Notes under the pieces: model-generated
Database searches by the model: none
What the model saw: only the letters and a program-made list of their open reading frames with translations
Told to the model about the DNA's origin: nothing
Position numbers and translations under genes: made by a program
Part shown: piece after piece, positions 4,516-51,430 of the stretch
Layout: each line of letters opens with the position of its first letter
Numbering within the stretch: the first letter of the stretch is position 1
Assembly (NCBI GenBank): GCA_943349075.1
Contig: CALQYY010000001.1
Coordinates: 8,312 to 72,311, forward strand
DNA: 64,000 nt
From: Candidatus Magasanikiibacteriota bacterium
GTDB taxonomy: Bacteria > Patescibacteriota > Patescibacteriia > Magasanikbacterales > 2-02-FULL-50-9b
Reading direction: 5' to 3'

Positions 4516-4636
4516 AGGTGAGTAGATGGTAGCATATGAGTATGTTTTTGAGAACTTATATTGATGGTTTTTGTTCGTTCGGCCCAGTTTTCTATTTGTG
4601 ATATAATGCAAATAATTTTGTACCTTTGTTTTTTAT

Positions 4637-8274: not shown

Positions 8275-8275
8275 T

Positions 8276-10420: not shown

Positions 10421-10478
10421 TTCTACATAAGACTGGTAACGATTATTTGTTCGGCGTGGTATACTTACTTCGTACCGC

Positions 10479-36676: not shown

Positions 36677-37904
36677 GCGCAAGATTAAAAACACGGCTTG
36701 CGATTTTTGCAATAACTGCGCCTAAGATAAAATATTTTGGAATCAAAACAAAAAGCGCGGCAATATTAAAACATGCAGAGGCAATATTGAAAATATATAG
36801 CTCGCGTTTTGCTGTATGTGCTTGGAGAACTGCGACAGGAATTATTGTTGCGATTGGAATCAGCGCAAACACGTATATTTGTGTGTAATAAATTGAATCC
36901 GCGTATTTCGGAAAAAGGTAGTCGAAAATGTATGGCGCAGCAAAATAAAACACAATAGAAACGAGTGTTGCTAGGAATGTGAAACCAATAATTTTTCTCC
37001 AAAATGATTCTTTGATTTCGCTAATATCACGGTTTGCAAATTTTGGAAATGCAAGAACGGATGCTGTATTAAAAAGCGCTTTAAGTTGGTCGGGAATTGC
37101 TTTTGTAAAACTATAAACAGCAAGCTGGGCTGCGCCTAAATAGTGAAAAGTTAATATCTGATCGATTTGCGTCGAAATCGTGTTCAATATATTCATCGCA
37201 CTAAAATGAGCACCGACCTCGAGAAGGTTTTCACTGTTGATTGTATTTGGCTTGTATTTTTTGAATGTCCAGACGCATAAGGATGCTCCTGTAAGAATAT
37301 GAACAACAAGATAAATTAAAAAGAATGTTAGAGGGTTTTGAACAAAAAATGTTCCTACGAGGAGTGCGATAGCAGGAATTGCATTAAGTATAATTCCGAA
37401 ATAGCTATTAAATCGAAACTCTTTTTTTCCTTCGAGAAATGATCCGTATAAGTAGGCAAGCTGAAAGAGCGGTCCGAGAATCGCAATAGCAAGTGCTCCA
37501 AGACCAAGTGTTGGGTTTGTGTGATAGAAATGGTAGTAAGCAATTCCAAATGCAATTGCAGACATTGGAGCGCTACCAATAATTGAATATTTAAATGACT
37601 GTCTGTAGGCACCCTCTTTTCCTTGGGCTATTGCACGAACGACTGCGGCTGAAAGGCCTGTAAATGAAAAAGCGGTGAGGGTCCAAAACAATGAAAGAAG
37701 AAAGCGGTAAGTTCCGTAGACCTCCTTTGAGACATATCGAGCAAAAGTGATTGATAGGATGAACGCTATGAAACTAATTCCTACTTGGCCAAATCCTAGC
37801 CAGAAACCACCCTTTGCTAAATACACCATATCTGTTTTGGTGTATTTTTCAGATGTTCGCAAAAGGCTGTAAATCCTGTTTCGAAGCTTTGGCAAAAGTT
37901 CCAT
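36624..37904 (-). CDS. polysaccharide flippase, Wzx-like MOP superfamily
   Basis: About 12 predicted TM helices and the polysaccharide-biosynthesis-protein-family architecture. Confidence 0.7.
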   Translation of the reverse strand: MELLPKLRNRIYSLLRTSEKYTKTDMVYLAKGGFWLGFGQVGISFIAFILSITFARYVSKEVYGTYRFLLSLFWTLTAFSFTGLSAAVVRAIAQGKEGAYRQSFKYSIIGSAPMSAIAFGIAYYHFYHTNPTLGLGALAIAILGPLFQLAYLYGSFLEGKKEFRFNSYFGIILNAIPAIALLVGTFFVQNPLTFFLIYLVVHILTGASLCVWTFKKYKPNTINSENLLEVGAHFSAMNILNTISTQIDQILTFHYLGAAQLAVYSFTKAIPDQLKALFNTASVLAFPKFANRDISEIKESFWRKIIGFTFLATLVSIVFYFAAPYIFDYLFPKYADSIYYTQIYVFALIPIATIIPVAVLQAHTAKRELYIFNIASACFNIAALFVLIPKYFILGAVIAKIASRVFNLALSSFLLSQFFAKHSKKN

Positions 37905-37910
37905 AGTATT

Positions 37911-38582
37911 TTATTTTTTTGCAGTCACCAAATACCCGAGTGGATAATGGTTCTCGTTGTAGTTTTTTCTACTCTGCTTGCTTAGCTTCTGAAAAAGTTT
38001 GTCGAGCCAAGATGCAATGAAAGAGCAGGGTAGTTCAACAATGTGACTTAGTTTTTGTGGGAGATGGCGGCCTAGCATTAAATGTCGAGCTTTCATAATG
38101 CCTGGTGCGATTGGTGTTATCGTAATTGATGAAAATCCGATATTCTCAAGAAGTTTTTTTAACGCTTGGTCGGTGAAGCGGTGGTAATCGTTCGGTGATG
38201 GGTGAATTGGAAACATGAACGGCACAACGATCAAAACCGAACCGTCTTTTTTGAGTACGCGAAATGTTTCGGTTAATAATTGATGGTAATTGAAAACGTG
38301 CTCAATGACGTTCATGAGAATAGCGCCATCGTAGTGATTGTTGGGAATGGAGAGTGGTTTTTCTAGATCGGCAACAATGTCTGGTTTTGCATCGACGTCG
38401 ATATTGAGAGACGTTGCTTTAAAATTACCTTTGATCAGGTTATGATATTCCGCAGTTGTTCCACCACCTAAATCTAAAACCGAACCATTGAGTGTTTCTG
38501 ACTGAAGAAGCTGATAGGTTGATCGTCGAAAAATACTAAGCATAATCATCGAAGTATACGGTTCTGTGTCACTAGTTGTCAA
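37911..38582 (-). CDS. class I SAM-dependent methyltransferase
   Basis: VLDLGGGTT motif I and a Methyltransf_11-like core. Confidence 0.7.
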   Translation of the reverse strand: MTTSDTEPYTSMIMLSIFRRSTYQLLQSETLNGSVLDLGGGTTAEYHNLIKGNFKATSLNIDVDAKPDIVADLEKPLSIPNNHYDGAILMNVIEHVFNYHQLLTETFRVLKKDGSVLIVVPFMFPIHPSPNDYHRFTDQALKKLLENIGFSSITITPIAPGIMKARHLMLGRHLPQKLSHIVELPCSFIASWLDKLFQKLSKQSRKNYNENHYPLGYLVTAKK

Positions 38583-38632
38583 AATAAAAACTCACCAGAA
38601 TATGGTGAGTAATTATCGATATTTAATGAAAA

Positions 38633-38818
38633 TTAAACAATCTCTTTTGCAAGTTTAGTCACTGTTTTCCAGCAGTTTGTGCAGATGAGTACGCGAGTAC
38701 CCAAAACACGACGTGGCTGCAAATTAATGCTTGACCACTTTTTTGACTGGATGTTTGAGTGACTGCGTGTTGCAGAGCGGACAGGGCCGCGGGTGCAAAG
38801 TTTACAGATTTGAGCCAT
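38633..38818 (-). CDS. rpmB: 50S ribosomal protein L28
   Basis: MAQICKLCTRGP...SHSN... matches the L28 family. Start set at MAQ. Confidence 0.8.
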   Translation of the reverse strand: MAQICKLCTRGPVRSATRSHSNIQSKKWSSINLQPRRVLGTRVLICTNCWKTVTKLAKEIV

Positions 38819-38892
38819 AGTGTTACGCTTTACTCGTAATTTCAAGTGCTAGAAGTGTATCAGAAACACGTTAATTAAGCAAGGGGTCGCCT

Positions 38893-39489
38893 ATGGATAT
38901 CATTTTTGACATTATCATCATTGTATTTTCCGCTATTTTGCATGAAATTTCTCACGGACTGGCGGCGCGGGCGCTGGGGGACAAGACTGCTGAATATGCA
39001 GGAAGGTTGACGCTTAACCCGATGGCACATATCGATCCTTATGGCTCGGTCATCATGCCGTTATTTTTGTGGTTTGTGTCGGGTGGACGATTTTTGTTCG
39101 CATACGCAAAACCAGTTCCGTTTAATCCGTACAATCTAAGAAATCAAAAGTGGGGACCTGCACTCGTTGGACTTGCGGGGCCGGCAACGAATTTCGCAAT
39201 TGCAATCGTGCTTGCTGGAATTATTCGGCTCGACCTGTTTTCATTTGGAATTGCTGAGTTTCTAGTTCGTGTTTTGCTTATCAACCTTTCGCTTGGTGTG
39301 TTTAATTTATTGCCAATTCCACCACTTGATGGTTCGCGTCTTATGTATGTTTTTTTGCCGCGACGGCTTGAGCGATATAAAGCAATGTTTGAGCAGTATG
39401 GAATGTGGGTTGCCCTACTTTTTGTTTTCTTTTTTTCGTACCTACTCTTGTATCCGATTGAATGGATCGCGCGGATTTTGATTGGATAA
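38893..39489 (+). CDS. site-2 protease family (peptidase M50) membrane metalloprotease, short form
   Basis: HEISHG HExxH motif within a TM helix, and a later LNLLPIPPLDG motif. Confidence 0.7.
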   Translation: MDIIFDIIIIVFSAILHEISHGLAARALGDKTAEYAGRLTLNPMAHIDPYGSVIMPLFLWFVSGGRFLFAYAKPVPFNPYNLRNQKWGPALVGLAGPATNFAIAIVLAGIIRLDLFSFGIAEFLVRVLLINLSLGVFNLLPIPPLDGSRLMYVFLPRRLERYKAMFEQYGMWVALLFVFFFSYLLLYPIEWIARILIG

Positions 39490-39493
39490 AATT

Positions 39494-40645
39494 ATGAAAA
39501 AATTGGTTTACATTGCAAATAATCGAATGCCTGCAGAGAGAGCGTACAGTTCTCAAATTATGTCCATGTGCATGGAATTTGCTGAATTATGTTCACAACG
39601 TAATTGGAATTTTGAGCTAGTCATTCCTCGTCGATATTTACCAGCAGGAGAGGATGTTTTTTCTTATCATGGTTTTGAAAAAAAATTTAATGTAGTTTAT
39701 CTAGCTTGTTATGATGCAATACATCTAATACCTCAATTAGGGCAGCTTGCATATTGGCTCCAATCAATAACTTTTGTTGCTAGTTTATTGTTGTGGCGTC
39801 TTAAACAAACAGACAAAATAACTGTTTACACAAGAGAGATCTATATTTCAGCATTTTTTTCTCAAAGTGCTTATGAAATGCACACTATTCCGGAGAGAGC
39901 ATCGTGGTTATTACGCAGGTTATTGCGGCGTTGCACATATATCATTGCGATTACACATGGAATGAAACGAGATTTAATCTCTCTTGGATGTGATGCTGAG
40001 CGCATTTTGGTTGCGTCTGACGGCATTGATCTAGAGCGATTTGGTAATGAGATTAGCAAAGAATCTGCTCGTAGAGATCTTGTACTACCCGTTGATAAAT
40101 TTATTGTTGTCTATGCGGGTAGTTTTTTTCAGCATCTATGGAAGGGGGTGACTACTTTACTGAGTGCTGCAAAGAAATTGGATCATGAGACGCATATACT
40201 GTTTATTTTTGTCGGAGGGCATCCGGAAGAGATTGATGCGATAAACGAAGGTCTTAAGAACTATGAGAATATTAAGCTCGTTGAGCACTCACCATTTCAA
40301 GTGGTGAGAAAGTATTTAGCTGCTGCAGATGTTCTGGTTATCCCTAACAATAGCGGATATCGCGTCTCAAATCACTATACGTCGCCGCTAAAATTATTCG
40401 AATATATGGCTGCGCAGCGATTAATTGTTGCTTCAGATTTGCCATCCATTAAAGAAATTATTAGTGAAGAAAGTGCTGTATTTTTTGAGCCAAATAATGT
40501 TGATGATTTATCATCTGTACTGCAGAATTTGTCGCATAATTATGGTCTACATAAACAAAAAGTGTTTAATTCGTTTAATCTAGTAAAATCCTATACATGG
40601 AAAAAGCGTGCTGAGCGCATTTTAGGCTTTTTGGATTTACATTAA
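39494..40645 (+). CDS. glycosyltransferase family 1/4 (GT-B)
   Basis: C-terminal GT1 signature (SPLKLFEYMAAQRLIVASD). Confidence 0.75.
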   Translation: MKKLVYIANNRMPAERAYSSQIMSMCMEFAELCSQRNWNFELVIPRRYLPAGEDVFSYHGFEKKFNVVYLACYDAIHLIPQLGQLAYWLQSITFVASLLLWRLKQTDKITVYTREIYISAFFSQSAYEMHTIPERASWLLRRLLRRCTYIIAITHGMKRDLISLGCDAERILVASDGIDLERFGNEISKESARRDLVLPVDKFIVVYAGSFFQHLWKGVTTLLSAAKKLDHETHILFIFVGGHPEEIDAINEGLKNYENIKLVEHSPFQVVRKYLAAADVLVIPNNSGYRVSNHYTSPLKLFEYMAAQRLIVASDLPSIKEIISEESAVFFEPNNVDDLSSVLQNLSHNYGLHKQKVFNSFNLVKSYTWKKRAERILGFLDLH

Positions 40646-40670
40646 ATATTATGATAAAGTTGCTGACGCT

Positions 40671-41582
40671 ATGAAGAAAAATGAAAAAATTATAATTACA
40701 GGAGGTCTAGGGTTCATATTCTCTTATGTGACTGAGTATTATGTCGCACAAGGTTACGATGTCGTTGTTATTGATAATCAGACAGAAGGGAGTCACCCTG
40801 AAATAATTGATGGCAGCTTTCATTACTACAACCTAGATGTTGCTGAGCCATCAGTAATGAAAATTATAGAGGAGTACAACCCGGATTATATTATTCATGC
40901 TGCGGCTATTTCGGACGTTGATTATTCAATTAGAAATCCATACCAGACTTTGCAAAAAAATATTATGGGTAACCTTAATATTTTTGAAGCTGCGCGTCAT
41001 CTTACAAACTTGAAAAAAATTGTATACGTCTCTACGGATGAAGTGTATGGTGAGTGCGAACATTTAAAGCGTGAGGATGAAATCATTTTTCCAAAAAATC
41101 CTTACTCATGTTCTAAGGCTGTTGGTTCGCTATTTCGGATTGCATTTGAAAGTACCTTTAGTGAGTTGAAGGATAAGACTGCTGAAACGCGTTTTTGCAA
41201 TGTATTTGGACCTCGTCAGGATAGTAGAAAAATTTTACCGGCTATTAAAGAGGGTCTTGAGAAGGGGAAATCATTACCATTACACAGCGAAGGAAAAGGT
41301 TATCGTGAATATATTTACGTCAAAAATATTCCTGAAGCCGTTGATCTCATTTTACATAACGGTAATCGTACATATAATCTTACCTTAAATGAGGGCTTTA
41401 CTGTTTCAGAGCTGATTAATAAAGTTGAAAAAGTTTCAGGCAAGAAAATTATGACACACCCAACAGATCGGCCAGGAATGGATCTTAAATATCAAATGGA
41501 TAATAGTAGAATTATGGAACTTGGTTGGAAACCTCTATACAGTTTCGAGCAAGGTCTTACTGAATATTTAGGGGAGCTCTAA
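40671..41582 (+). CDS. NAD-dependent sugar epimerase/dehydratase (SDR family)
   Basis: TGGLGFIFS Rossmann motif and a YSCSK catalytic YxxxK. Confidence 0.8.
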   Translation: MKKNEKIIITGGLGFIFSYVTEYYVAQGYDVVVIDNQTEGSHPEIIDGSFHYYNLDVAEPSVMKIIEEYNPDYIIHAAAISDVDYSIRNPYQTLQKNIMGNLNIFEAARHLTNLKKIVYVSTDEVYGECEHLKREDEIIFPKNPYSCSKAVGSLFRIAFESTFSELKDKTAETRFCNVFGPRQDSRKILPAIKEGLEKGKSLPLHSEGKGYREYIYVKNIPEAVDLILHNGNRTYNLTLNEGFTVSELINKVEKVSGKKIMTHPTDRPGMDLKYQMDNSRIMELGWKPLYSFEQGLTEYLGEL

Positions 41583-41588
41583 GAGATT

Positions 41589-42500
41589 ATGAGAAAAGCT
41601 CTGATCACGGGCGGCGGTAAATTTATTGGTTCTCATCTTGCAGAGGAACTAATGCTGCGTAATTATGAAGTTCATATAACCACTAGTTCACCTCAGGGAA
41701 TAGAGGAAAAATATAATGTTGGTGCAGCTGTGCATGTTTGTGACATACGTGATTTTGATGCCATGATGAAGTTGTGTGAAGGAGTGGACTATATTTTTCA
41801 TTTTGCTAGCCATGCGGATCAGGCATGTATTGATAATCCAATTGAGACCGAGAGTGTCAATGTTGGGGGGGCTGTCTCAATGCTGGAAGTTGCTCGACGT
41901 ACAAGGGTAAAAAAGTTTATCTTTGCTTCGTCTGCTATGGTATATGGTGATCAAAAGCAAGTACCTCTTCGAGAAGACCTCTCTGCATTACCAGTTGAGC
42001 CATATGGGTTATACAAGTATTTTGGCGAACGCCTTATGAAATTTTGGGCGGAGCAGTATGCTGTCCCAACAGTTACATTGCGATTTTTTAATGTGTATGG
42101 CCCTCGAGATCCTGTCGGACCTGCTGCGTATGTTATAGGTCGATTGTTAGATAGACGAATAAATAAGTTGCCTCTAACGATTGATGGCGACGGGACTGAT
42201 ACACGTGATTATATCCATGTTACTGACGTTGTTCGCGCATGTATTATCGCAGCGGAACATCCTGATGTGAGTAATGGAGAATTGTTCAATATTGCCACTG
42301 GTATAGAAACCTCACTTAATACGCTTGCGGCACATATAGGAGGAAAAGTAATACATCTTCCAAACCGTTCCGGCTCACGTCGCGGTCCGAATCGACGTGT
42401 CGCAGATATTTTACATGCTAAAACTGTTTTAGGTTGGGTGCCGAATATTACGATTGAGGAGGGTATACAAGCCCTCAAAAATGATCTTGGTATAAGTTAA
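41589..42500 (+). CDS. NAD-dependent sugar epimerase/dehydratase (SDR family)
   Basis: TGGGKFIGSHL Rossmann motif and YGLYKYFGE YxxxK. Confidence 0.8.
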   Translation: MRKALITGGGKFIGSHLAEELMLRNYEVHITTSSPQGIEEKYNVGAAVHVCDIRDFDAMMKLCEGVDYIFHFASHADQACIDNPIETESVNVGGAVSMLEVARRTRVKKFIFASSAMVYGDQKQVPLREDLSALPVEPYGLYKYFGERLMKFWAEQYAVPTVTLRFFNVYGPRDPVGPAAYVIGRLLDRRINKLPLTIDGDGTDTRDYIHVTDVVRACIIAAEHPDVSNGELFNIATGIETSLNTLAAHIGGKVIHLPNRSGSRRGPNRRVADILHAKTVLGWVPNITIEEGIQALKNDLGIS

Positions 42501-42524
42501 AGCTGAAATGATCATGCAAAATAT

Positions 42525-43169
42525 ATGGATCACGAGAATGATTTAGAAAATTGGTTTAAGTCTCAGCAGGAGATTCTTGCTATTGATGTAAAAGAGATAG
42601 CGCTGGCAGATGGTCAGGATTGGGTGATCACTCAGGAAGATGGACGTCCTCATCACATTGGACATAAGACAGGGAAGTATCATCGCGGTGTTTTACTTAA
42701 AGCTTGGGATAATGTACGGCAAGCGTGGATAGAGCGCTTTTTATTAGCGCCAATTCCTCCTGAGGGTGTTGAAAAATTCTATGGCGTTACTCTCATAGCT
42801 CGCTACAACGATCGATATCTGGTACAAGCGAAAGCAGAGCCGGGTAATCCGACTCCGGGCCATGTCCAATTGACTTCTACAATTCAGGCCTCTTATACGA
42901 ATATAATGGCGCAGCTTTCTGGGTCAATTCCTTTTACTTGGATGTATAAGAATGAACGCTGTATACAACTCATTAGCTCTCAAGATGGAGCGCAATTATA
43001 TCTAAAGAACAATAAAGTATCTTTTCTTGAACTTGCAGAAGAACCGAAAGAAATTCCAGAAAATTTTGCTTGGGCAACAGCTGCAGAAATTAAGTCATTT
43101 GCTCAGCGTGGATTAGTTTCAGAACATATAATGCAATGCTTGGGTGTCTGTTTTTTGGCAGATAAATAG
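42525..43169 (+). CDS. single-domain NDP-hexose 2,3-dehydratase-like (Nudix-fold) protein
   Basis: VQAKAEPGNPTPGHVQLTSTIQASYTNI resembles my recollection of the QAKxEPGN...LSPTVQAT signature of EvaA/TylX3-type dehydratases. It is only about half the length of canonical two-domain enzymes. Confidence 0.45.
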   Translation: MDHENDLENWFKSQQEILAIDVKEIALADGQDWVITQEDGRPHHIGHKTGKYHRGVLLKAWDNVRQAWIERFLLAPIPPEGVEKFYGVTLIARYNDRYLVQAKAEPGNPTPGHVQLTSTIQASYTNIMAQLSGSIPFTWMYKNERCIQLISSQDGAQLYLKNNKVSFLELAEEPKEIPENFAWATAAEIKSFAQRGLVSEHIMQCLGVCFLADK

Positions 43170-43241
43170 CTTGCGGTGTTACTTCTGTTTTGATAGTATT
43201 ATTTCGTACATGATAATGTCTGTGCGACAATCTAATATTGT

Positions 43242-44270
43242 ATGAAAAAAATTAAGCTTTTTAAGCCATATGTAAGCTGGCGGGCAATATGGAATGTGGT
43301 GAAGGTTTTACGGAGTGGTCAATTGGCTGAAGGACCTCAGGTTGCTGCATTTGAAAAAGAGTTTGGAGAAATGTTTGGTTTGTCTGATGTTATCACGCTT
43401 AATTCAGGTACGGCCGCACTTGAGTTGGCGTATGAGCTAGCTGGTATAACAGTAGGCGATGAGGTTATCAGTCCTGTTCTTACGATGCCGGCAACTAATA
43501 TTCCTTTGGTCCGACGCGGAGCAAAAATTATTTTCGCAGATACCGAAGATGATTTAAATATTAGTATTGCGGATGTTGAGCAAAAAATAACACCAAACAC
43601 AAAAGCAGTTGTTTTTGTTCACTTTAATGGCAATAACCGAGGGCTTAATGAGCTTGTGGCTCTGTGCGCAAAGAAAAATATTATTCTTATTGAAGACGCT
43701 GCTCAGGCTGTTGGCTCTGATAACTGGGGAAAGGGGGATTTTGTTTGTGTTTCATTTCAGGCAATTAAGACATTTACTACAGGTGATGGTGGGGCTTTAA
43801 TCTGTAAAAATAAGGAGTTGACACCAAAGGCACGTCGATTGCGTTGGTTTGGTTTCGACCGACAGCGCAGACAGACTGCTGACATTACTGAAGCAGGATA
43901 TAAATATCATATGAATGATATTGCAGCGGCGATTGGCCGCGGTAATTTACGTTCAGTTCAGAAAGTGATTGCACATCGCAAGAGTCTTGTAGAAGAATTT
44001 AATAAGCACGGTATACCTGCGCATATCTGGCGCGCATTTATTCTTACAGATCAGCGTGAGGAATTACAAAAAAAATTAAAAGATAATGGTATTGATGCTG
44101 AGGCATACGATAATCGGAATGATATCTATTCGTTATTTGGTGGTCGACAAAGTTTTCCAAACATGGATCGTTTGGAAAAGCGCTATCTGCTTCTACCGCT
44201 TCATATGGGAGTTTCTTTAGACGATGTTCGTAGAATGAGTAAGATAATTAAAGAGTTTTATGCAATATAA
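43242..44270 (+). CDS. DegT/DnrJ/EryC1/StrS-family PLP-dependent sugar aminotransferase
   Basis: N-terminal fold-type I aminotransferase blocks, and an FQAIK-type Lys region (SFQAIKTFTTGDGG). Confidence 0.85.
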   Translation: MKKIKLFKPYVSWRAIWNVVKVLRSGQLAEGPQVAAFEKEFGEMFGLSDVITLNSGTAALELAYELAGITVGDEVISPVLTMPATNIPLVRRGAKIIFADTEDDLNISIADVEQKITPNTKAVVFVHFNGNNRGLNELVALCAKKNIILIEDAAQAVGSDNWGKGDFVCVSFQAIKTFTTGDGGALICKNKELTPKARRLRWFGFDRQRRQTADITEAGYKYHMNDIAAAIGRGNLRSVQKVIAHRKSLVEEFNKHGIPAHIWRAFILTDQREELQKKLKDNGIDAEAYDNRNDIYSLFGGRQSFPNMDRLEKRYLLLPLHMGVSLDDVRRMSKIIKEFYAI

Positions 44271-44820
44271 AAATCCCGACATCTATTCATCGTACAGAGA
44301 AAACGATCTTGGAAGAACTTTTTATGATTTAGTGCTTGAGCACAAACCAAAGAAAATTATAGAGTTTGGAACATTATACGGTTACTCCACTGTTGCAATG
44401 GCAATGGCTCTTGATGAGTTGGGTGAGGGACATGTCTGGGCAAACGATTTGTTTGAAGACTATGAGTTCAGACACTCAACAATGGAAGAAACTCAGAAAA
44501 ATATTGATACCTACGGTGTTACAAAATACATAACCTTACAAAGGAATGATTTTGAGGAGTGGTTAAAGAATCCAGAACCTTTTGATCTTCTTCATGTTGA
44601 TATCTCAAACAAGGGTGATACGATTGAACGATTATATGAAGCAGTGAAAGATCAGATTGCGCATGGAGCAATTGTTATTTTTGAAGGAGGAACTGAAGAG
44701 CGCGATCAAGTAGAATGGGTTACTAAATACAATTGTAAAAAAATTTATGGATCAGGAATTCCATATAAGGTATTAAATCCTAATTTTACTTCATTATCTC
44801 AATTGATTATACCAGAATGA
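44260..44820 (+). CDS. class I SAM-dependent methyltransferase (Methyltransf_24/TylF-like)
   Basis: IIEFGTLYGYST motif I. The small size and deoxysugar context suggest a sugar O- or N-methyltransferase. Confidence 0.55.
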   Translation: MQYKNPDIYSSYRENDLGRTFYDLVLEHKPKKIIEFGTLYGYSTVAMAMALDELGEGHVWANDLFEDYEFRHSTMEETQKNIDTYGVTKYITLQRNDFEEWLKNPEPFDLLHVDISNKGDTIERLYEAVKDQIAHGAIVIFEGGTEERDQVEWVTKYNCKKIYGSGIPYKVLNPNFTSLSQLIIPE

Positions 44821-45647
44821 AATTAGCTATTATCGCCAGTGGTTGGCATTTTCCACTACATTTTTTTAAGCAGATGTCCGAACAAAAAATACCAGCTGGG
44901 TGGACGGTTGATATGTTTTGCGTGTCTCATCGAGATCCCTCATTTTCTGTATCTGAAAAAAAGGAAATGCTTGCGCATATGGGCTATACACGTCGCGAGC
45001 TGTATGATCGAATACTATATGAGCAGATAGCGACTGTTGATGATATTAGAGAGCTTGGATGGGCTTACGTGCTTGAACCGAACATTATTGGTGACATGGG
45101 TAATGTAAATCAATGGCTTGAGAAAAACGATTATAAACAGTACGACAAGTTCTTGTTTACGCACGATGACAACTTTATTCTTTCTACTGAAATGTTGAAA
45201 GATATATTGCCACAGAATGATTGGCTTGTCTTAAGTAATAGCGATGGACATACGCAGCGTCGGCTACGTAAATGGCTTAAATTACCTAAGGAGTTTAGTA
45301 TTCGTGGTTCGTTCGAGTTTTTTACAAAAGAAATGCTTGATATTATGGGAGGTAAATTTGATTTATCTGATGTTCAGTTGACAAGAGACGGAGAGGTTAC
45401 CACAAGCGGTGTATTTGATGAGTTGAGTGATTGGAACGCTACAGTTGTGCCCTGGCAGCGTCTCATTGAAGAAAAAAAACTTAGATCCCGTATACATGCG
45501 CTTTCGGGTTATTATCGGGTTAGCAAATATTGCATTGAGGGAGAACGTGGTTTTATACATCGTACCGAAGCTTGTAATACTGACGAAGAAAATCGAGGTC
45601 TTGATATGGTTGAAAAAAATTTTGAGCGATTGAAGGCTCGTGCTTAA
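44817..45647 (+). CDS. hypothetical protein in the sugar locus
   Basis: Translationally coupled to the upstream gene (ATGA overlap). No recognisable motif. Confidence 0.4.
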   Translation: MKLAIIASGWHFPLHFFKQMSEQKIPAGWTVDMFCVSHRDPSFSVSEKKEMLAHMGYTRRELYDRILYEQIATVDDIRELGWAYVLEPNIIGDMGNVNQWLEKNDYKQYDKFLFTHDDNFILSTEMLKDILPQNDWLVLSNSDGHTQRRLRKWLKLPKEFSIRGSFEFFTKEMLDIMGGKFDLSDVQLTRDGEVTTSGVFDELSDWNATVVPWQRLIEEKKLRSRIHALSGYYRVSKYCIEGERGFIHRTEACNTDEENRGLDMVEKNFERLKARA

Positions 45648-45910
45648 GATGGCGGCATTGTTGAAAGCTACTTTGGAACACGAAGAATTCGAGAATTTCA
45701 TGGTGAATTTAAGTGTGGTAGGGGAATACAACAAACATTTTGGTGGCCACATGGATGAGATTGTGATACTCTGCGAGTAAAGCTTGAACGACTAGTAAAG
45801 CATTATTTATAAACCTAAATATCTAGTCTAAAATCATATACAAATCCAATGAGGAGTGCTCATCAGTTTTGAAGCATATTTAATTTTCTTGGATAAAATA
45901 GAGAAAGTTT

Positions 45911-46636
45911 ATGAAAATAAAAGATTTTGTTTTAGCATTAGTTTCTCCAAATTTACGATTTCGCATTGTAAATTTTAAAAACAGTATTTACGGCGGATAC
46001 AAAAAATTTTATTTTTCTCAAAACGGCGAAGACGTTGTCGCTGCTACATTGTTTGATGATTTAAAAATTAAAAATGGTTTCTATGTTGATGTTGGTGCGC
46101 ATCACCCTCAACGATATTCGAATACAAATTTGCTTTTCTTAAAAGGTTGGTCAGGTATCAATATTGATCCAAACCCCGAGACTATTAGGCTTTTTAACTC
46201 AGCAAGAAAGAGAGATATAAATCTTAATGTGGGTGTTGCTGAAAATAAATCTGAAATTACTTACTATAATTTTTCCGACCCAGCTGTGAATACTTTTTCT
46301 GCACAAGCTGCTAAAAAGTATGAGGATAAAAAATGGATTTCATTAATAAGCAAAACCCTTGTCAGCGTTACTCCGCTCCGCGAAATTTTGGCGCAGCACT
46401 TACCAACAAATAAAACCGTTGATCTTTTAAATATTGATGTCGAAGGTTTTGATATGGAAGTTTTGAGATCAAATGATTGGGAAAATATTAAACCCTGTGT
46501 GATAATTATAGAAGACCATCTTTTTGATATTAAAAAATCGGAAAATAGTGAAATATACTCTTTTCTTTTACAGAGAGGTTATCGACTGCATGTGTATTTA
46601 GGATTTTCGTTAATTTTCGTAAGAGGGGGTATCTAG
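45911..46636 (+). CDS. FkbM-family methyltransferase
   Basis: YVDVGAHHPQ and LLNIDVEGFDMEVL motifs characteristic of the FkbM domain. Confidence 0.7.
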   Translation: MKIKDFVLALVSPNLRFRIVNFKNSIYGGYKKFYFSQNGEDVVAATLFDDLKIKNGFYVDVGAHHPQRYSNTNLLFLKGWSGINIDPNPETIRLFNSARKRDINLNVGVAENKSEITYYNFSDPAVNTFSAQAAKKYEDKKWISLISKTLVSVTPLREILAQHLPTNKTVDLLNIDVEGFDMEVLRSNDWENIKPCVIIIEDHLFDIKKSENSEIYSFLLQRGYRLHVYLGFSLIFVRGGI

Positions 46637-46699
46637 ATAAATTTTAAAAAAAAGACTATTATATATTTTCCCCATCACATTGCGGGAAGGAGATTTCAC

Positions 46700-46912
46700 A
46701 TGAGCGATCGGTTCGAGACCTCAATCCTGTGCGGATTGAGCCGTTCTTTGGTTAGAGACAGTTCGCGGGGACCAAGTCTCCAGCCTTCCGGAAATCCTGT
46801 GGAGGATTCTGAGATTGAAGCGCCTGTTCCGTGGGGATCGCATCGGATTGATCCGAGTCACATCCCTCCGCCGCCAGGCCACATTTCGGATCCGCCCACC
46901 CCATCCAACTAA
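46700..46912 (+). CDS. questionable 70-aa Pro/Ser-rich ORF at the 5' edge of the high-GC island (it may instead be a structured RNA)
   Basis: Strong SD GGAAGGAG sits 7 nt upstream of the ATG. The product is low-complexity and the region is rich in short hairpins. Confidence 0.25.
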   Translation: MSDRFETSILCGLSRSLVRDSSRGPSLQPSGNPVEDSEIEAPVPWGSHRIDPSHIPPPPGHISDPPTPSN

Positions 46913-46972
46913 CAGGACAACCTGTCCTGTTTTCGCGCCACTGACGTAACTGTTGGTGGCGCTCGTTTTTAT
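46912..46972 (+). terminator. tandem stem-loops plus T-tract, copy 1 of a repeated terminator element
   Basis: acaggaca-acc-tgtcctgt then tttcgcgccactgacgtaactgttggtggcg then ctcgttttta. Confidence 0.5.
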
Positions 46973-47092
46973 CATTTGATTGTTGACCGTCTTGTGTATT
47001 TGTTATAGTTTGTTTTGGCAGATAGGCTGCGATGAAGGTGATATCGGTCTCGTTTTTGGGGTGGTGGCGGGAACGGCCTATGCGCACATTCG

Positions 47093-47368
47093 GTGAGCGA
47101 CCAAGAGTTATTCAAATTGTGGCTGCTGGAGGAGTTCATGAACAAAGGTCCTGAAGATGAGATTCTCAAAAGAATTGCCAAGATGGGGGTCGGCGAAGAA
47201 GTTACGTTCGGGCCACAGATTACCGGAACTGAATGGGCTTACCAGCTCATTCGTACCGAGGGAGGAAGACTTGATCTTCGGATGGTCCATGTTTCGGGGA
47301 CGTGTGAGTTCTCGACCGTGGGAAATCCGAATGGAGACATACTCTTCACTCACAAGCACTCTGAGTAG
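47093..47368 (+). CDS. hypothetical 91-aa protein, short member of a two-gene paralog family (with 49097-49693)
   Basis: GTG start with a weak RBS. Shares the motif E(E/S)VTFGP(Q/E)xTGT(E/Q)W(A/S)Y with the 198-aa protein downstream. Confidence 0.35.
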   Translation: MSDQELFKLWLLEEFMNKGPEDEILKRIAKMGVGEEVTFGPQITGTEWAYQLIRTEGGRLDLRMVHVSGTCEFSTVGNPNGDILFTHKHSE

Positions 47369-47391
47369 TCTTGCATCAAGAACGCAACCGT

Positions 47392-47432
47392 TTTTTCGCG
47401 CCATTGACGTAACTGTCGGTGGCGTTGTTTTA
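47392..47432 (+). terminator. copy 2 of the repeated terminator element
   Basis: ttttcgcgccattgacgtaactgtcggtggcgttgttttatt is near-identical to copy 1. Confidence 0.5.
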
Positions 47433-47441
47433 TTATTCACG

Positions 47442-47470
47442 TTGACACTCGAAAGGTTTGTTCGTAGTAT
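47442..47470 (+). promoter_or_regulatory. sigma70-like promoter (TTGACA, 17-nt spacer, TAGTAT)
   Basis: Consensus -35 with a 17-nt spacer. It implies the true start of the downstream gene is the ATG at 47512 after a GGAGG RBS. Confidence 0.45.
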
Positions 47471-47511
47471 GTGGATTACAAGCCTTTAATACGGGCCGTT
47501 TGGAGGAATTC

Positions 47512-48162
47512 ATGCAGAAGGGTGATTGGCGTTCGTGGTTAGCGAGACATCGCGAGCAGAGCTCAATGAGGGCTGAAGTAGTTCCGATTTCGCAGGTCGG
47601 TGACTGGCAGGTTCTGGTTGACGAGTCTGGACAAGCGGTTTCTGTCGGGCGCGCGGACGGGAAGTATCATGAAGCGGTCGTTGTGCGTGTGAGCAACGCT
47701 CGCCGCGAAGTGCCTGATTATTCGACACTCCTTTTCCGAGAGGCAACGAAGCCAGGAGAAGAGGGCGTCATGGTTTTGGTCGGAGACGGCCAGGGAAATT
47801 TCCTGATTCAGGCAAAGGCCGAGCCGGGAAATGACACAGAAGGCAAGGTTCTTCTTGCGGCGACGCTGCAAGTCTCCAGGGCCAATCTCGGACAGGCGCA
47901 TGGGGGGGGTATACCTCCGCGAGCAGAGCTTTTCGGTCAGGTCGATCCCGCCGGATGGTGCCTCATTCGGGCTGATGGCGCGCGTTTTCTCAGCAAGCGA
48001 AACTTGTTTGCAGTCGCGATTGTTGATCGCGGTGGGTTTGAGACAAGCGAATCTGAGCGCTGGTTCACAGACGCGGAGCTCTGCGAGGCGCTTCAGGATG
48101 GGGAAGTTGGTGAGCTTTTGGCGCACGCCTGGCTTGCAGCACTCAAGATGCCACGAGTCTAG
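47512..48162 (+). CDS. single-domain NDP-hexose 2,3-dehydratase-like (Nudix-fold) protein, high-GC paralog of 42525-43169
   Basis: GKYH and LIQAKAEPGNDTEGKVLLAATLQVS are shared with the sugar-locus protein. GGAGG RBS. Confidence 0.5.
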   Translation: MQKGDWRSWLARHREQSSMRAEVVPISQVGDWQVLVDESGQAVSVGRADGKYHEAVVVRVSNARREVPDYSTLLFREATKPGEEGVMVLVGDGQGNFLIQAKAEPGNDTEGKVLLAATLQVSRANLGQAHGGGIPPRAELFGQVDPAGWCLIRADGARFLSKRNLFAVAIVDRGGFETSESERWFTDAELCEALQDGEVGELLAHAWLAALKMPRV

Positions 48163-48171
48163 GACAAGGCT

Positions 48172-48224
48172 CATGGGCGGCAGTTCGAGGTTGAAACGAC
48201 CTCGGCTGCCGCTTTCTTTTTATC
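48172..48224 (+). terminator. intrinsic terminator
   Basis: Imperfect long hairpin, ggcggcagttcgaggt...acctcggctgccgc, followed by tttcttttta. Confidence 0.45.
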
Positions 48225-48236
48225 TAAATTCACGTA

Positions 48237-48265
48237 TTGACAGTAATTAATTTTTGATGTATTAA
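48237..48265 (+). promoter_or_regulatory. sigma70-like promoter (TTGACA, 17-nt spacer, TATTAA)
   Basis: Consensus -35 with a 17-nt AT-rich spacer, upstream of the GGAGG-ATG at 48313. Confidence 0.45.
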
Positions 48266-48312
48266 TCATGCACGCTAACTGCGCTGCCATCTAGTGGCAG
48301 AGGAGGCTGTTC

Positions 48313-49008
48313 ATGTCTAGGAGCTTTTCATTGCGGCCTCGCCGCGAAACGCTCGAGGAAGTGAACCGGTTGATAACCAAAGAGTGTCCTTGGTTTGTTC
48401 CAATTGCAGATGAGCGCGAACTCGGTATGTGTTCGAAAGGTGAGATTGAGATTATCGCTGTGGCTCAGGTGGTCGCGGATTTGTGGCATGCGTTCGCGCA
48501 TGTGCAGTTCACGACCATCCAGCCCGACGGTAGCTTCAAACCCTACACAGTTCGAATCGACAAGCCGGCCGCGCTCGTTTATGCGGTGATCAATGGAAAA
48601 CTGCTCTTGTCGTACCAGTCTCGGCTGGCGATCGGTAGTAAGTGGACTCTTGAGTTGCCGCGTGGTTGGGTCTCGCCGGAGGATGCGAGAACGCCTGAGT
48701 CAGCGGTGCGTGCACTGTTGACGCGGGAATGTGGATCGGCATTCGTGGCTTCGCTAAGCTCGTTTCGGCCTGTAGAGGTAAAACGAATTTGGCAGGATAC
48801 GGGTACGATGCGCAGTGATTTGCCGGTGTACTATCTCGAGGCAGAATCTGTGCTCATACCACTGGAACGCCAGGGTGTGTGCAAGCCGAAGCTTTACGGC
48901 TTTGGTGAAGCAGATGAATTGGAAGAGAAAGGAAAGCTGAATGACGCACTCTCTCTCGCAGGGTTGCGAGTGGTGGAGCGTTATCTGCAACGCACGGTCC
49001 GGCTCTAG
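48313..49008 (+). CDS. Nudix-like fold protein with a degenerate Nudix box
   Basis: AALVYAVINGKLLLSYQSR beta-strand followed by WTLELPRGWVSPEDARTPESAVRALLTRECG follows the Nudix topology, but the REUxEE catalytic glutamates are not conserved. Confidence 0.4.
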   Translation: MSRSFSLRPRRETLEEVNRLITKECPWFVPIADERELGMCSKGEIEIIAVAQVVADLWHAFAHVQFTTIQPDGSFKPYTVRIDKPAALVYAVINGKLLLSYQSRLAIGSKWTLELPRGWVSPEDARTPESAVRALLTRECGSAFVASLSSFRPVEVKRIWQDTGTMRSDLPVYYLEAESVLIPLERQGVCKPKLYGFGEADELEEKGKLNDALSLAGLRVVERYLQRTVRL

Positions 49009-49096
49009 GCCGGGAACATACTACGCAGGCTGCTCGTCTCGGAGCAGGTGTGGCACCTGGCAGACCCTACGGGGACTGCGATAACGGTGCAGTGCT

Positions 49097-49693
49097 ATGA
49101 ATACTTCAAGCAAGATCAATGTTGAACTCCAAGCAGCTCTCGGCGCGCTGATCGCTCAGCTTCCGGCGGGCGAGAGTGTCACCTTCGGTCCCGAACAGAC
49201 AGGTACGCAGTGGAGTTACACTCTCACGGCGTGCGAGATTGACGGGAAACGGCGCGTGGATGCCCGGCTTCACAACACAAGCGATGGCATGGATTGGTTC
49301 TACGCTGTGGACACACAGCCGCACAAGCTCGGCGCGCCGATCATGTACGAGGAGCCGTCACTACGCGTGCCGTGTGCGGAAGCGGGCATCTTGGATCAGG
49401 AGGGATTTCTGGTTGGTGTCGTGGCTTTCGGGGACAGCACGCTGCGCGCGAGCTGGTCCAAGTTGGTCAAAATCGAACAGAAGCAGTTCGGGTTCGCCCC
49501 GGATCGCAGCTTCTCGATCAACGGCGAACTCATCGGGTACGTGTGGGCAATTGTCCTTGCGAACAAGAATCGCATCGATGGCTACGTGGCAGTCGTCCGC
49601 CCCGAGTCGCCGATCGGTCCGGTGTGGGTGTTGGAGCTCGAGGACGTCGTGCGCGAAGCGGTCCTCCAGGATGCGCTGCGTGTGAACGTGTAG
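49097..49693 (+). CDS. hypothetical 198-aa protein, long member of the paralog family with 47093-47368
   Basis: Shared N-terminal motif GESVTFGPEQTGTQWSYTL. The C-terminal about 110 aa are unique. Confidence 0.4.
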   Translation: MNTSSKINVELQAALGALIAQLPAGESVTFGPEQTGTQWSYTLTACEIDGKRRVDARLHNTSDGMDWFYAVDTQPHKLGAPIMYEEPSLRVPCAEAGILDQEGFLVGVVAFGDSTLRASWSKLVKIEQKQFGFAPDRSFSINGELIGYVWAIVLANKNRIDGYVAVVRPESPIGPVWVLELEDVVREAVLQDALRVNV

Positions 49694-49719
49694 CTCGGTT
49701 CCTTCGGGGTCTGGGCAGT

Positions 49720-49762
49720 GGGTGGTAGGTTGTCGTCAAGACGCCTGCCACCCTATTTTTAT
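49720..49762 (+). terminator. intrinsic terminator
   Basis: gggtggtagg...cctgccaccc stem with one G.U pair, followed by tattttta. Confidence 0.5.
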
Positions 49763-49763
49763 A

Positions 49764-49791
49764 TTGACTTTTTTTTAAAAAACGATACAAT
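49764..49791 (+). promoter_or_regulatory. sigma70-like promoter (TTGACT, 16-nt spacer, TACAAT)
   Basis: Hexamers immediately follow the terminator. This implies the real start of the next gene is the ATG at 49831 after AAGGAGG. Confidence 0.45.
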
Positions 49792-49830
49792 TCCAAAATG
49801 CTCTGTAATTTTGTGGGGCAAGGAGGCGCG

Positions 49831-50616
49831 ATGTCTGAGATTAAAGATTTGTATGGTCAGCTACTTGAGCTGACTGCGGGTTACCAGGATATTGATGTTG
49901 GGGCGATGCGGGCTGATGCAAAGCGTCGCGGTATTGACCCTGAGTTTATGAACTGGCTGGTGGATCGTCTGGAACACTACAAGGACGAGATGGTGGTGAC
50001 GCGCCGGTCACTTTTGGATATGAAGCCATGGGACATTGTGGAGGGCGTACTGCTCAACATGGCTCGTGCGTTCTTTCAGATCTGGGGCATCGAAGTCTAT
50101 TTGCGTTCGAAAGGTCAACGCTTCACGCAGCCGATCATTAGCTACCCCGAACCGGGAGTAGAGGTGCTCGTGCATGCAGTGAAGGACGACCGATACCTTT
50201 TGCGTCTGCGTCAGGCTCCGGGTGGCAGCGACAGCCGAAGCAAGCTCGGCTTTGTCCCAGGGCTCACAGCATCAGCCTCTCACCTCAAGGGGCTCGACGC
50301 TGCGAAGCATCCGGCACGGGCACATCTTATTGAGCTCGCGCTCCAAAAATTCTCGGAGCTTCCGAACGACAGGATCCCGGCATGGTTCTTCATGCCCAAG
50401 GATCAGGCTCGCTATGACAATTCCTACAACTTCGTCGTGCCGCTGCGTGTCTGTAACAAGAGCAGTGTGCCGGAGATTGATGATCCGGATGAGTTATGGC
50501 TCAGCCCTGCAGAAGTGCTTTTTTGCGCGCGCTGGTGTCTGCTCGACCAGCATGCGTACGAGGCGTTCGGCGCGCTCCGTATTGTCGAGGATGTACTGCT
50601 TCGGGTACACCCGTAG
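49831..50616 (+). CDS. hypothetical protein, possibly a divergent third member of the 2,3-dehydratase-like/Nudix-fold family
   Basis: LLRLRQAPGGSDSRSKLGFVPGLTAS aligns loosely with the QAKAEPGN...LTSTIQAS block. The C-terminal DDPDELWLSPAEVLF parallels the WxTxAEL region of the paralogs. Confidence 0.4.
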   Translation: MSEIKDLYGQLLELTAGYQDIDVGAMRADAKRRGIDPEFMNWLVDRLEHYKDEMVVTRRSLLDMKPWDIVEGVLLNMARAFFQIWGIEVYLRSKGQRFTQPIISYPEPGVEVLVHAVKDDRYLLRLRQAPGGSDSRSKLGFVPGLTASASHLKGLDAAKHPARAHLIELALQKFSELPNDRIPAWFFMPKDQARYDNSYNFVVPLRVCNKSSVPEIDDPDELWLSPAEVLFCARWCLLDQHAYEAFGALRIVEDVLLRVHP

Positions 50617-50634
50617 TGGTTTCGGCAGCAGTTG

Positions 50635-50686
50635 GACAGCGGCACGTATTCTTCGGGATTCGTGCCGCTGTCCTCTTTTTTATTTT
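50635..50686 (+). terminator. intrinsic terminator closing the high-GC island
   Basis: gacagcggcacg...cgtgccgctgtc 12-bp stem followed by ctcttttttatttt. Confidence 0.6.
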
Positions 50687-50857
50687 CGGAGTTTGGAAAA
50701 TGGTGTCGACACTATTAATGAGTCTTTGGGCGCTTCCGGGAGACTGCGCACAAGCATTCGCGCGCAACATTATGTTGCGCATCGCGAATGCGCGGAGGAA
50801 CAAGTGAATTTCGCGGTTAAGCGAAATGAGCGGTCTCGCGGAAGCGCCCAAAAACTC

Positions 50858-50886
50858 TTGACAGCCTTTCAAAATTCCGCTAAACT
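50858..50886 (+). promoter_or_regulatory. str-operon promoter (TTGACA, 17-nt spacer, TAAACT)
   Basis: Consensus -35 with a 17-nt spacer, about 80 nt upstream of rpsL. Confidence 0.5.
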
Positions 50887-50965
50887 CTCCCTACATTCCT
50901 TTCAAAACTTATTCTCTCATCTGCGCGCGGCTGGAATGTGAACCGCTGCCAGAGTAACCAGTGCT

Positions 50966-51430
50966 ATGCCTACCATGAGCCAATTGCTCCGTAAGGGGCG
51001 TACGCCGGCGAAGAAGAAGAGCAAGTCTCCTGCAATGCAGTGGACTTTAGATTCTCTCCATCGCCGTCGTCACGAAATTAAAGACGGTGCGCCATTTAAG
51101 CGCGGCGTTTGTACAAAGGTGACAACAATGACACCTAAAAAGCCTAACTCAGCTATCCGTAAAGTAGCTCGTATTCGTTTATCAAACGGTATGGAAGTTA
51201 CTGCCTACATCCCAGGTGAAGGTCACAACTTGCAGGAACACTCAATCGTTATGATTCGTGGTGGTCGTGTTAAGGATCTTCCAGGTGTGCGCTACCATAT
51301 CGTTCGCGGTGTGTTTGATGCACAAGGTGTTGCAGGTCGTCGTCGAAGCCGTTCGATTTACGGTATGAAGAAGCCAAAAACTCCAGCTGTAAAGCCGGTT
51401 GCAAAGGCTAAGAAGGGTAAGAAGAAATAA
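50966..51430 (+). CDS. rpsL: 30S ribosomal protein S12 with an internal insertion of about 12 aa and a Lys-rich C-terminal tail
   Basis: [14 protein letters not shown] and [13 protein letters not shown] motifs. An extra segment, [21 protein letters not shown], precedes KRGVCT. Confidence 0.9.

Follow-up and report, generated by a model that had tools for sequence, protein, structure and literature searches.

Strain-variable, GC-rich cassettes of moron-like design upstream of rpsL in Candidatus Magasanikbacteria

A GC-rich island of small genes lies directly upstream of the rpsL operon in a 64,000-nt stretch of DNA, here called the window, that belongs to a 74-kb metagenome contig of Candidatus Magasanikbacteria, a lineage of the Candidate Phyla Radiation (CPR). 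Coordinates below are positions in the window, and L-numbers denote loci from related contigs. The island measures 4.2 kb, is distal to a low-GC glycan cluster and contains six open reading frames (ORFs) on the + strand (Table 1), in keeping with the five or six small genes counted in an earlier note made from the sequence alone. These are grouped in five units, each with a predicted sigma70-like promoter and intrinsic terminator. The island is an array of five autonomous, moron-like cassettes that, by their predicted signals, each comprise a promoter, a short leader, a ribosome-binding site (RBS), one or two ORFs and a terminator. Strains that are almost identical carry different cassettes, and the promoter/terminator linkers they share border one gene in one strain and a different gene in another. 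The earlier note had pictured a single island inserted at this point; what emerges instead is a lasting array of cassettes that varies by strain at a conserved site and is common to a clade of Magasanikbacteria.

Composition and organization of the array

The compositional switch noted earlier between an FkbM methyltransferase gene and the str operon is borne out by windowed GC and by GC at third codon positions (GC3). Across 46650–50900, GC is 50–60% (GC3 0.55–0.74), as against 33–41% on the upstream side and about 45% downstream. In 400-nt windows, GC is 0.30–0.36 at 45800–46799 versus 0.49–0.60 at 46600–50999, and 0.43–0.48 from 51000 onward, in the str operon; the rest of the 64-kb window outside the island ranges from 0.35 to 0.52 (2-kb windows). 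The shift lies mainly at synonymous sites: GC3 is 0.58 in o216, 0.59 in o231, 0.74 in o198 and 0.64 in o261, as against 0.35–0.42 in rpsL, rpsG, fusA, tuf and rplC and 0.26–0.34 in the glycan genes adjoining the island. Ratios of nonsynonymous to synonymous divergence (dN/dS) of 0.09–0.29, across the island genes that could be tested, indicate that the genes are real and under purifying selection. The reported absence of mobility genes was also confirmed: over 10 kb to the left and to the right of the island, no called gene gave a Pfam match to an integrase or transposase, and none is a phage structural gene. No island protein has a match in NCBIfam. Because island RNA matched no Rfam family at gathering or permissive thresholds and a tRNA scan returned nothing relevant, an rRNA- or tRNA-type cause of the high GC was ruled out.

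The expression signals that delimit the units were assessed by scanning and folding. A promoter scanner returned 15 sites, compared with 5.9 ± 3.0 in shuffles. It recovered two of the three promoters proposed in the earlier note, at 47442 and 49764; the third, at 48237, is evident by eye and was missed by the scanner, whose rule needs T at position 6. Each of the five proposed terminators forms a strong hairpin structure ahead of a U tract (z −3.6 to −7.5 relative to shuffles). The further proposal that every unit has its own promoter and GGAGG RBS requires amendment for o198, which has neither and is predicted to be co-transcribed with o231 as one operon. The leader of that operon is 100% identical in L005 and L007 and 92–93% identical in L017, L011 and L012; its hairpin is not significant by fold (z −0.5), and the hairpins on both sides of o231 (48270–48315 and 49009–49060) are likewise conserved in sequence with no significant stability.

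Table 1. Features of the cassette array and its surroundings (window coordinates; MFE, minimum free energy in kcal/mol; z, relative to shuffles).
Feature	Position	Strand	Remarks
nat214, low-GC single-domain 2,3-dehydratase homologue	42525–43169	+	in neighbouring glycan cluster
Entry linker, AT-rich	46631–46699	+	promoter-like TAGATA-17-TATTAT at 46634, RBS GGAAGGAG, 5′ of first island gene
o70, small Pro-rich ORF (70 aa)	46700–46912	+	first island gene in four cassette variants
Terminator T1, two hairpins and U tract	46911–46972	+	MFE −31, z −6.4
o91, short paralogue of o198 N-terminal segment	47093–47368	+	BLASTP
Terminator T1′	47393–47436	+	direct repeat of T1, 87% identical to 46930–46968; fold z −3.6
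Promoter-like TTGACA-17-TAGTAT for o216	47442–47470	+	scanner, 10/12 matches
o216, single-domain (half-size) NDP-hexose 2,3-dehydratase homologue	47512–48162	+	PF03559
Terminator after o216	48175–48224	+	MFE −29.2, z −4.9
Promoter-like TTGACA-17-TATTAA for o231–o198 unit	48237–48265	+	read directly from sequence
o231 conserved leader	48274–48312	+	hairpin CTGCCA-TCTAG-TGGCAG adjoining RBS GAGGAGG
o231, ADP-ribose-pyrophosphatase-like Nudix protein, degenerate Nudix box	48313–49008	+	most conserved cassette
Conserved spacer 3′ of o231	49009–49058	+	92–96% identical in L005, L007, L011, L012
o198, orphan-fold family	49097–49693	+	members only in Magasanikbacteria-type contigs
Terminator after o198	49720–49762	+	MFE −25.6, z −5.5
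Promoter-like TTGACT-16-TACAAT for o261	49764–49791	+	scanner, 10/12 matches
o261, divergent 2,3-dehydratase-like, N-terminal extension	49831–50616	+	PF03559, 8.7e-7
Terminator after o261	50634–50686	+	MFE −31.5, z −7.5
GC-rich structured element	50720–50857	.	inverted repeat, between last terminator and rpsL −35
rpsL promoter TTGACA-17-TAAACT	50858–50886	+	scanner; right-hand conserved anchor of variable locus

Cassette variation among related strains

The str operons of L019 and L022 are 95–97% identical to that of the window at the nucleotide level and are preceded, at the same site, by different gene sets. L019 displays the order o70, type-B Nudix (35% identical to o231), o198 homologue (77%) and cupin, and L022 the order o70, cupin, type-B Nudix and o198 homologue (81–83%, according to the alignment used). 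The L005–L010 lineage carries o70, homologues of o216 (68%), o231 (86%) and o198 (77%), and a cupin gene. In the more distant L011–L016 lineage (fusA 92.6% identical in amino acids), o231 (87%) precedes an o216-like gene that is intact. In L017, a named metagenome-assembled genome (MAG), the o231–o198 pair is found 5′ of rpsF-ssb instead of rpsL. The gene neighbourhood therefore does recur, with the same families at the same site in relatives, a point on which the earlier note had made its proposal depend. Since the glycan genes upstream of the island also differ among all of these contigs, the region before rpsL constitutes a hypervariable glycan locus with the GC-rich cassettes at its distal end.

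The joints between cassettes are shared among strains, with conserved linkers at 46631–46696 and 46919–47038 and a conserved T1′ terminator segment at 47374–47433. The entry linker is 79–95% identical to the segment 5′ of the o70 homologues in L005, L007 and L022, and the T1-plus-promoter segment 46919–47038 is 82.5% identical to L022 6582–6701. T1′ recurs in L005 (9065–9105) and L022 (7112–7174), where it follows different genes; between the 46919–47038 segment and T1′, the slot that holds o91 in the window holds a cupin gene in L022. The o216 terminator (48167–48225) is 92% identical to L022 8746–8805, which there follows the o198 homologue and abuts the rpsL promoter. On the right-hand side, conservation with L011, L012, L019 and L022 begins at the rpsL promoter (85–97% from 50856/50879 on).

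Divergence of the island genes is decoupled from that of core genes. Between the window and L022, fusA has a dS of 0.13 and 100% amino acid identity, compared with a dS of 0.37, a dN of 0.107 and 83% amino acid identity for o198; between the window and L011, dS is 0.94 for fusA and 0.47 for o231. Taken together, the shared linkers and the decoupled divergence point to cassette exchange by homologous recombination, which would act at the linkers and the conserved rpsL anchor and swap cassettes with no dedicated recombinase.

Between the last terminator and rpsL lies a structured element in which 31-nt outer arms (87% complementarity) enclose two inner hairpins in a three-way junction. The segment 50690–50870 folds with an MFE of −88.8 kcal/mol (z −8.6), and L005 and L007 share its core, 50740–50807, at 93% identity. 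L019 and L022 lack the element, Rfam offers no match to it, and no further copy was found in the window or in other-strain loci besides L005 and L007. Three independent assemblies end within it, namely L005, L007 and a 2653-bp Joint Genome Institute (JGI) contig, the last by coordinate arithmetic. It may represent a small RNA, a cis-element or a dispersed repeat. Further downstream, the stretch of L022 that separates the rpsL start codon from the conserved promoter (8879–9140) includes approximately 160 nt that the window lacks, and contains hairpin-like repeats. Ribosomal protein S12 itself (50966–51430) is, at 154 aa, longer than expected; judged from its sequence, it seems to have residues inserted close to the N-terminus and to end in a Lys-rich tail. 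Gene callers truncated it to 96 or 131 aa in related contigs.

The window as a whole displays three compositional classes: a core of about 0.46 GC, low-GC glycan clusters and the high-GC cassettes. Two low-GC stretches (0.35–0.41) occupy 4000–12000 and 34000–46600, and the second encodes glycosyltransferases, a flippase, short-chain dehydrogenase/reductase (SDR) dehydratases and epimerases, a DegT protein and methyltransferases. A further GC-rich gene (32117–33475, + strand; 452 aa, GC 0.55, GC3 0.65) adjoins ndk and has no Pfam or PDB sequence match. Its product is 41% identical to that of a 435-aa ORF (∼60% GC) that also adjoins ndk, at L011 728–2035, so at least one additional gene of this genome is a GC-rich orphan whose position is conserved.

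Protein families of the cassettes

The most conserved cassette encodes o231. The protein itself has no Pfam match, PF00293 included, and this Nudix family profile is touched weakly by four of 29 family members; HMMER, run exhaustively against 1.84 billion cluster representatives, retrieved 26 relatives only. The family profile (A2) nevertheless matches PDB entries 2yvm (8.5e-6), 1v8i (1.7e-5) and NudF 5c7q (1.6e-4). With the ADP-ribose/ADP-sugar pyrophosphatases 2YVM (Thermus thermophilus Ndx2) and 1V8I (an ADP-ribose pyrophosphatase, ADPRase), the alignment covers the Nudix fold, including the Q.R...E.P.G strand–loop and the C-terminal helix. Unlike these enzymes, o231 possesses an additional N-terminal region of ∼85 aa, belongs to a tiny lineage-restricted family and lacks the REx2EE box. 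At the Nudix box position it reads G118-WVSPEDARTPESAVRALLTRECG, so that the signature GX5EX7REUXEEXGU is not kept and at most one Glu (E139) lines up with REUXEE. The earlier description of this product as a degenerate Nudix protein was accurate. The fold assignment rests on the sequence profile, as an AlphaFold2 model built with five close homologues reached a predicted local distance difference test score (pLDDT) of 50 and was unusable. An ADPRase-like protein that has lost its catalytic box probably binds, rather than hydrolyzes, a nucleoside diphosphate (NDP)-sugar. o231 is 80–87% identical in L005, L011 and L017 (dN/dS 0.15–0.20), and the sole species-representative genome with a homologue is a Candidatus Magasanikiibacteriota MAG from groundwater. 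In L039, from a 58% GC host, a 227-aa gene (7816–8499, GC3 0.97) lies 3′ of a distant o231-family member; its product is not detected by the o198 profile and may be a very remote or alternative partner.

The o198 family has 38 members by profile search. o198 displays no Pfam or PDB sequence match, and an AlphaFold2 model built from the 38-member family alignment (pLDDT 91.4; predicted template modelling score, pTM, 0.82) has no structural neighbour and matches no known structure. Five polar residues, E86, R117, S121, K157 and R159, are invariant in the family, a pattern compatible with, though not diagnostic of, a phosphate- or sugar-binding site. A 44-aa stretch of o91 is 45% identical to o198 (BLASTP, E 1e-8), so the pair at 47093 and 49097, described earlier as having no recognizable fold, consists of related proteins and remains apart from known structures. 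The true start of o91 is likely ATG 47138 (76 aa), which is preceded at a distance of 3 nt by GGAGGAG; a gene caller also gave 76 aa. o70 lacks a Pfam match, and its homologues occupy the same position in L005, L019 and L022 with the common motifs NPF.TSI, WGSHRIDP and IPPPPG. As its GC1, GC2 and GC3 are about equal, the case for o70 as a coding gene is its conservation.

Three proteins resemble EvaA, a 2,3-dehydratase of the Nudix superfamily in which two domains are fused, with an active pocket A and a remnant pocket B, and in which E139 and E190 are the likely catalytic residues (PMC8987622). PF03559 is matched by o216 (3.9e-19, 69.3 bits; cutoff 25), by nat214 (6.7e-17, 62 bits) and, narrowly above the cutoff, by o261 (29 bits), in agreement with the earlier view of all three as dehydratase-like single-domain proteins; the proposed paralogue families are likewise real, nat214 being 29% identical to o216. 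o216 aligns to EvaA (PDB 4J7G; E 5.8e-18) twice, over residues 38–237 and 264–460. The Glu of its AKAEPGN motif aligns to E139 and an Asp to E190; nat214, a gene of native composition (GC 0.41, GC3 0.33), has the same Glu motif. By manual alignment o261 reads RQAPGG at this position; having lost the Glu, which amends the earlier description, it is probably not catalytic. It has no PDB sequence match and no homologue in any other fetched locus. Whereas EvaA comprises ∼470 aa with two tandem domains in one chain, o216 (216 aa), nat214 (214 aa) and o261 (261 aa) have one domain each and would need to dimerize. o216 appears to be a half-size EvaA-type 2,3-dehydratase with its catalytic Glu retained, and o261 a degenerate copy of its family.

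o216 has homologues in L005 (68% identical) and L011 (46%) and a dN/dS of 0.09. In L007 (4673–5315) the homologue is split into 138-aa and 84-aa ORFs by an apparent frameshift, a sign that the gene is dispensable or that the assembly contains an error; L005, L006, L008 and L009 have an intact copy. At L011 10745–11416, and also in L012–L015, the publicly called gene is a 223-aa minus-strand ORF; the + strand of the same segment holds the intact o216-like gene. High GC3 opens long antisense ORFs of this kind and thereby misleads gene callers.

Proposed role, origin and alternatives

Distant members of the o198 family (27–37% identity) offer a clue to function, as they are located in rml-type operons. 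L034 and L037 share the order HIT–NUDIX–RfbB–(o198-like)–RmlD–PGI, and L036 shows the same order up to RmlD, where the contig ends. The order is RfbB–RmlD–(o198-like)–PGI in L029 and RfbB–FdtA–RmlD...(o198-like) in L032. L023 and L024 read RfbB–FdtA–72aa–(o231-like Nudix)–(o198-like)–87aa–HD–RmlD–RmlA, of which L018 and L028 hold partial versions. Compared with rmlABCD operons for dTDP-L-rhamnose (dTDP, deoxythymidine diphosphate), o198-family genes take up the position, flanked by rfbB (rmlB) and rmlD, that rmlC often has, and no PF00908 (RmlC) match is listed in the rml loci with an o198-like gene. A more speculative possibility is that o198 is a non-cupin substitute for RmlC; unlike rmlABCD operons, some o198-like operons also carry an FdtA-like cupin. 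Canonical ADPRase-type Nudix genes share rml operons with o198-like genes as well. The small ORFs flanking the Nudix–o198 pair within the rml operon (L023 5892–6110 and 7578–7841; L018 1005–1217) are of two kinds. One, of 70–72 aa, ends in a Lys-rich tail and has a GC close to that of the host (0.45 in L023); the second, of 87 aa, has a GC of 0.69 and is coiled-coil-like by eye. Neither is related to o70. A literature search on genomic islands in Magasanikbacteria, or on CPR with rhamnose or RmlC, returned nothing specific.

EvaA-like half-dehydratases and FdtA-like cupins, to which the cupin cassettes of sister strains are weakly similar, are both expected to act on dTDP-4-keto-6-deoxyhexose. 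The island proteins, o231 and o198 included, are all expected to bind or act on this compound; the island would then divert or tailor the intermediate and in this way vary the surface glycan that the neighbouring low-GC cluster assembles. In the window, o198 adjoins this glycan cluster, not rml genes. Among the functions suggested in the earlier note, gene neighbourhood favors nucleotide-sugar modification over small-molecule signalling or defence, the last finding no counterpart in PADLOC-DB. The most economical reading, to which we give about even odds, is that the array is made up of accessory cassettes, moron-like in design, whose products tailor dTDP-deoxysugars destined for a variable surface glycan. 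A bolder proposal, which we regard as doubtful, is that o198 represents both a new fold and a new NDP-deoxysugar enzyme, working with Nudix partners or replacing them, in combination with recombinase-free cassette exchange at linker sites.

The high GC appears to stem from outside the present host. At 4-fold degenerate sites, G has a frequency of 0.37 in the island and 0.06 in ribosomal genes; because ribosomal genes avoid G at these sites and the island prefers it, translational optimization was rejected. RNA structure as a cause of the GC-rich coding sequence was also rejected (o198, z −0.8). The o231 and o198 families also occur in hosts of 56–58% GC (L038, L039), where they nearly match local composition; both families are tiny, and all of their source-named members are Magasanikbacteria, with no unrelated high-GC phylum among them. 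In the AT-rich clade, polarized third-position changes among o198 alleles number 29 GC-to-AT versus 11 AT-to-GC, an excess that implies alleles away from compositional equilibrium, compared with a balanced 26 versus 33 in fusA. These observations support import from GC-richer relatives followed by slow amelioration: the island genes would have come from such members of the same phylum and be decaying toward host composition. Horizontal acquisition with host-type signals, as suggested earlier, thus agrees with the foreign composition and the AT-rich promoters and terminators, with the refinement that the donors were likely GC-richer relatives carrying the same families (L038, L039).

Several observations weigh against this account of tailoring cassettes imported from relatives. 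Not all o198-like genes belong to sugar operons: those of L025/L026 lie between infB and rny, and that of L038 adjoins murC. L011 has o231 with no o198. Given that o231 lacks the Nudix motif and o261 the Glu, two of the four larger proteins may be non-enzymatic, and the absence of o198 from L011 and the frameshifted o216 homologue of L007 suggest dispensable genes. Promoter and terminator function in the island is predicted only. Furthermore, the GC3 of o198-like genes exceeds that of their operon neighbours by 0.2–0.5 in every locus examined, including syntenic rfbB–X–rmlD positions and the 56–58% GC hosts, so import plus amelioration is not a full explanation; repeated replacement or an intrinsic GC-favouring process may contribute to this excess.

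That excess also speaks for an intrinsic high GC, maintained in old resident cassettes through selection for rare codons that throttle translation or through GC-biased gene conversion (gBGC) at a hotspot. Changes among the o231 alleles of the window, L005 and L011 are balanced (16 AT-to-GC versus 15 GC-to-AT), and the locus clearly recombines, both of which suit such a process. The 29:11 drift of o198 alleles toward AT does not, nor does the lack of excess structure in o198 coding RNA, and the flanking rml genes of the same operons are not GC-enriched, which argues against regional gBGC. We judge an intrinsic origin unlikely.

A conflict system, whether anti-phage defence, toxin–antitoxin or toxin–immunity, with o231 and o198 as sensor and effector or toxin and antidote and the remaining cassettes as accessories, would explain the turnover as an arms race. 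Nudix-fold proteins do occur in nucleotide-signalling conflict systems. The locus is hypervariable among near-identical strains with divergent alleles of the core pair, and the type-B Nudix protein is 35% identical to o231 where fusA is >99% identical; the genes are small, lack known functions and have their own predicted promoters, and a foreign codon usage rich in rare G-ending codons would keep expression low. However, none of the seven proteins searched matched a PADLOC-DB 2.0 family at E ≤ 0.1 or gave a meaningful PHROGs match, and IMG/VR contains no relatives of o198 or o231. Distant o198-family members reside in rml operons, not defence islands, every accessory cassette of recognizable family belongs to an NDP-sugar enzyme family, and dN/dS values of 0.1–0.3 reflect purifying, not diversifying, selection. 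On this balance a conflict system is improbable.

An integron-type cassette array or a prophage remnant with true phage morons finds some resemblance in the serial small cassettes separated by imperfect inverted repeats, and in units with their own promoter and terminator and deviant GC, as in phage morons (PMC3594210). It is nonetheless very improbable, given that the 10 kb to each side include no gene for an integrase, a recombinase or a phage structural protein, that the hairpins have U tracts and are terminator-like, that the T1 hairpin, the only one inspected and by eye with no formal attC model, has no RYYYAAC/GTTRRRY attC core, and that neither core family has IMG/VR relatives. Integron cassettes are, moreover, normally promoterless, whereas those of the island carry predicted promoters. 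An assembly chimera or contaminating GC-rich DNA, which an abrupt GC change in a metagenome contig and several assembly breaks in or near the island might suggest, can practically be dismissed, because the glycan locus–island and island–rpsL promoter junctions recur in independent samples and assemblies, the linkers are AT-rich, the entry linker, T1/T1′ and o216 terminator are common to strains, and both flanks lie on one 74-kb contig.

Set beside known systems, the cassettes for which we favor deoxysugar tailoring resemble two. O-antigen and capsule loci vary among strains, have conserved genes at their flanks as anchors, and usually show a lower GC than the rest of the genome and transcription as long operons. 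Like them, the island edges a glycan cluster that differs between strains, has a conserved operon as anchor on one side, includes NDP-sugar families and exchanges genes independently of the core genome; unlike them, it is much higher in GC and made of insulated single-gene units, with a core pair that has no assigned enzymology. Phage morons are independent promoter–gene–terminator units of deviant GC inserted between conserved genes (PMC3594210). The island units share with them a predicted sigma70-type promoter and terminator, a sharp GC contrast, presence or absence among close relatives and insertion next to a conserved operon. They differ in that they belong to the chromosome of a CPR bacterium, are accompanied by no prophage genes, have no viral-contig relatives and form a tandem array whose shared linkers are apparently recombination joints. 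Distinctive relative to both kinds are the chromosomal CPR setting, the linkers resembling exchange joints, the lineage-restricted Nudix-like family with no catalytic box, and the orphan-fold family tied to rml operons.

CPR bacteria live as episymbionts, and their attachment to hosts and susceptibility to phages probably depend on surface structures; most of their strain-variable genes are unannotated. The locus described here offers a testable handle on such genes, in the form of a small protein set tied by neighbourhood to dTDP-deoxysugar synthesis. It also carries a caution for annotation, as gene callers are misled by genes of high GC in an AT-rich genome; in L011, for instance, an intact dehydratase-like gene is hidden by a 223-aa antisense call. 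More generally, insulated units that run from promoter to terminator can serve to package accessory genes, which are then reshuffled among strains with no dedicated mobility genes. If true, recombinase-free exchange at linkers would be a chromosomal, bacterial counterpart of phage morons.

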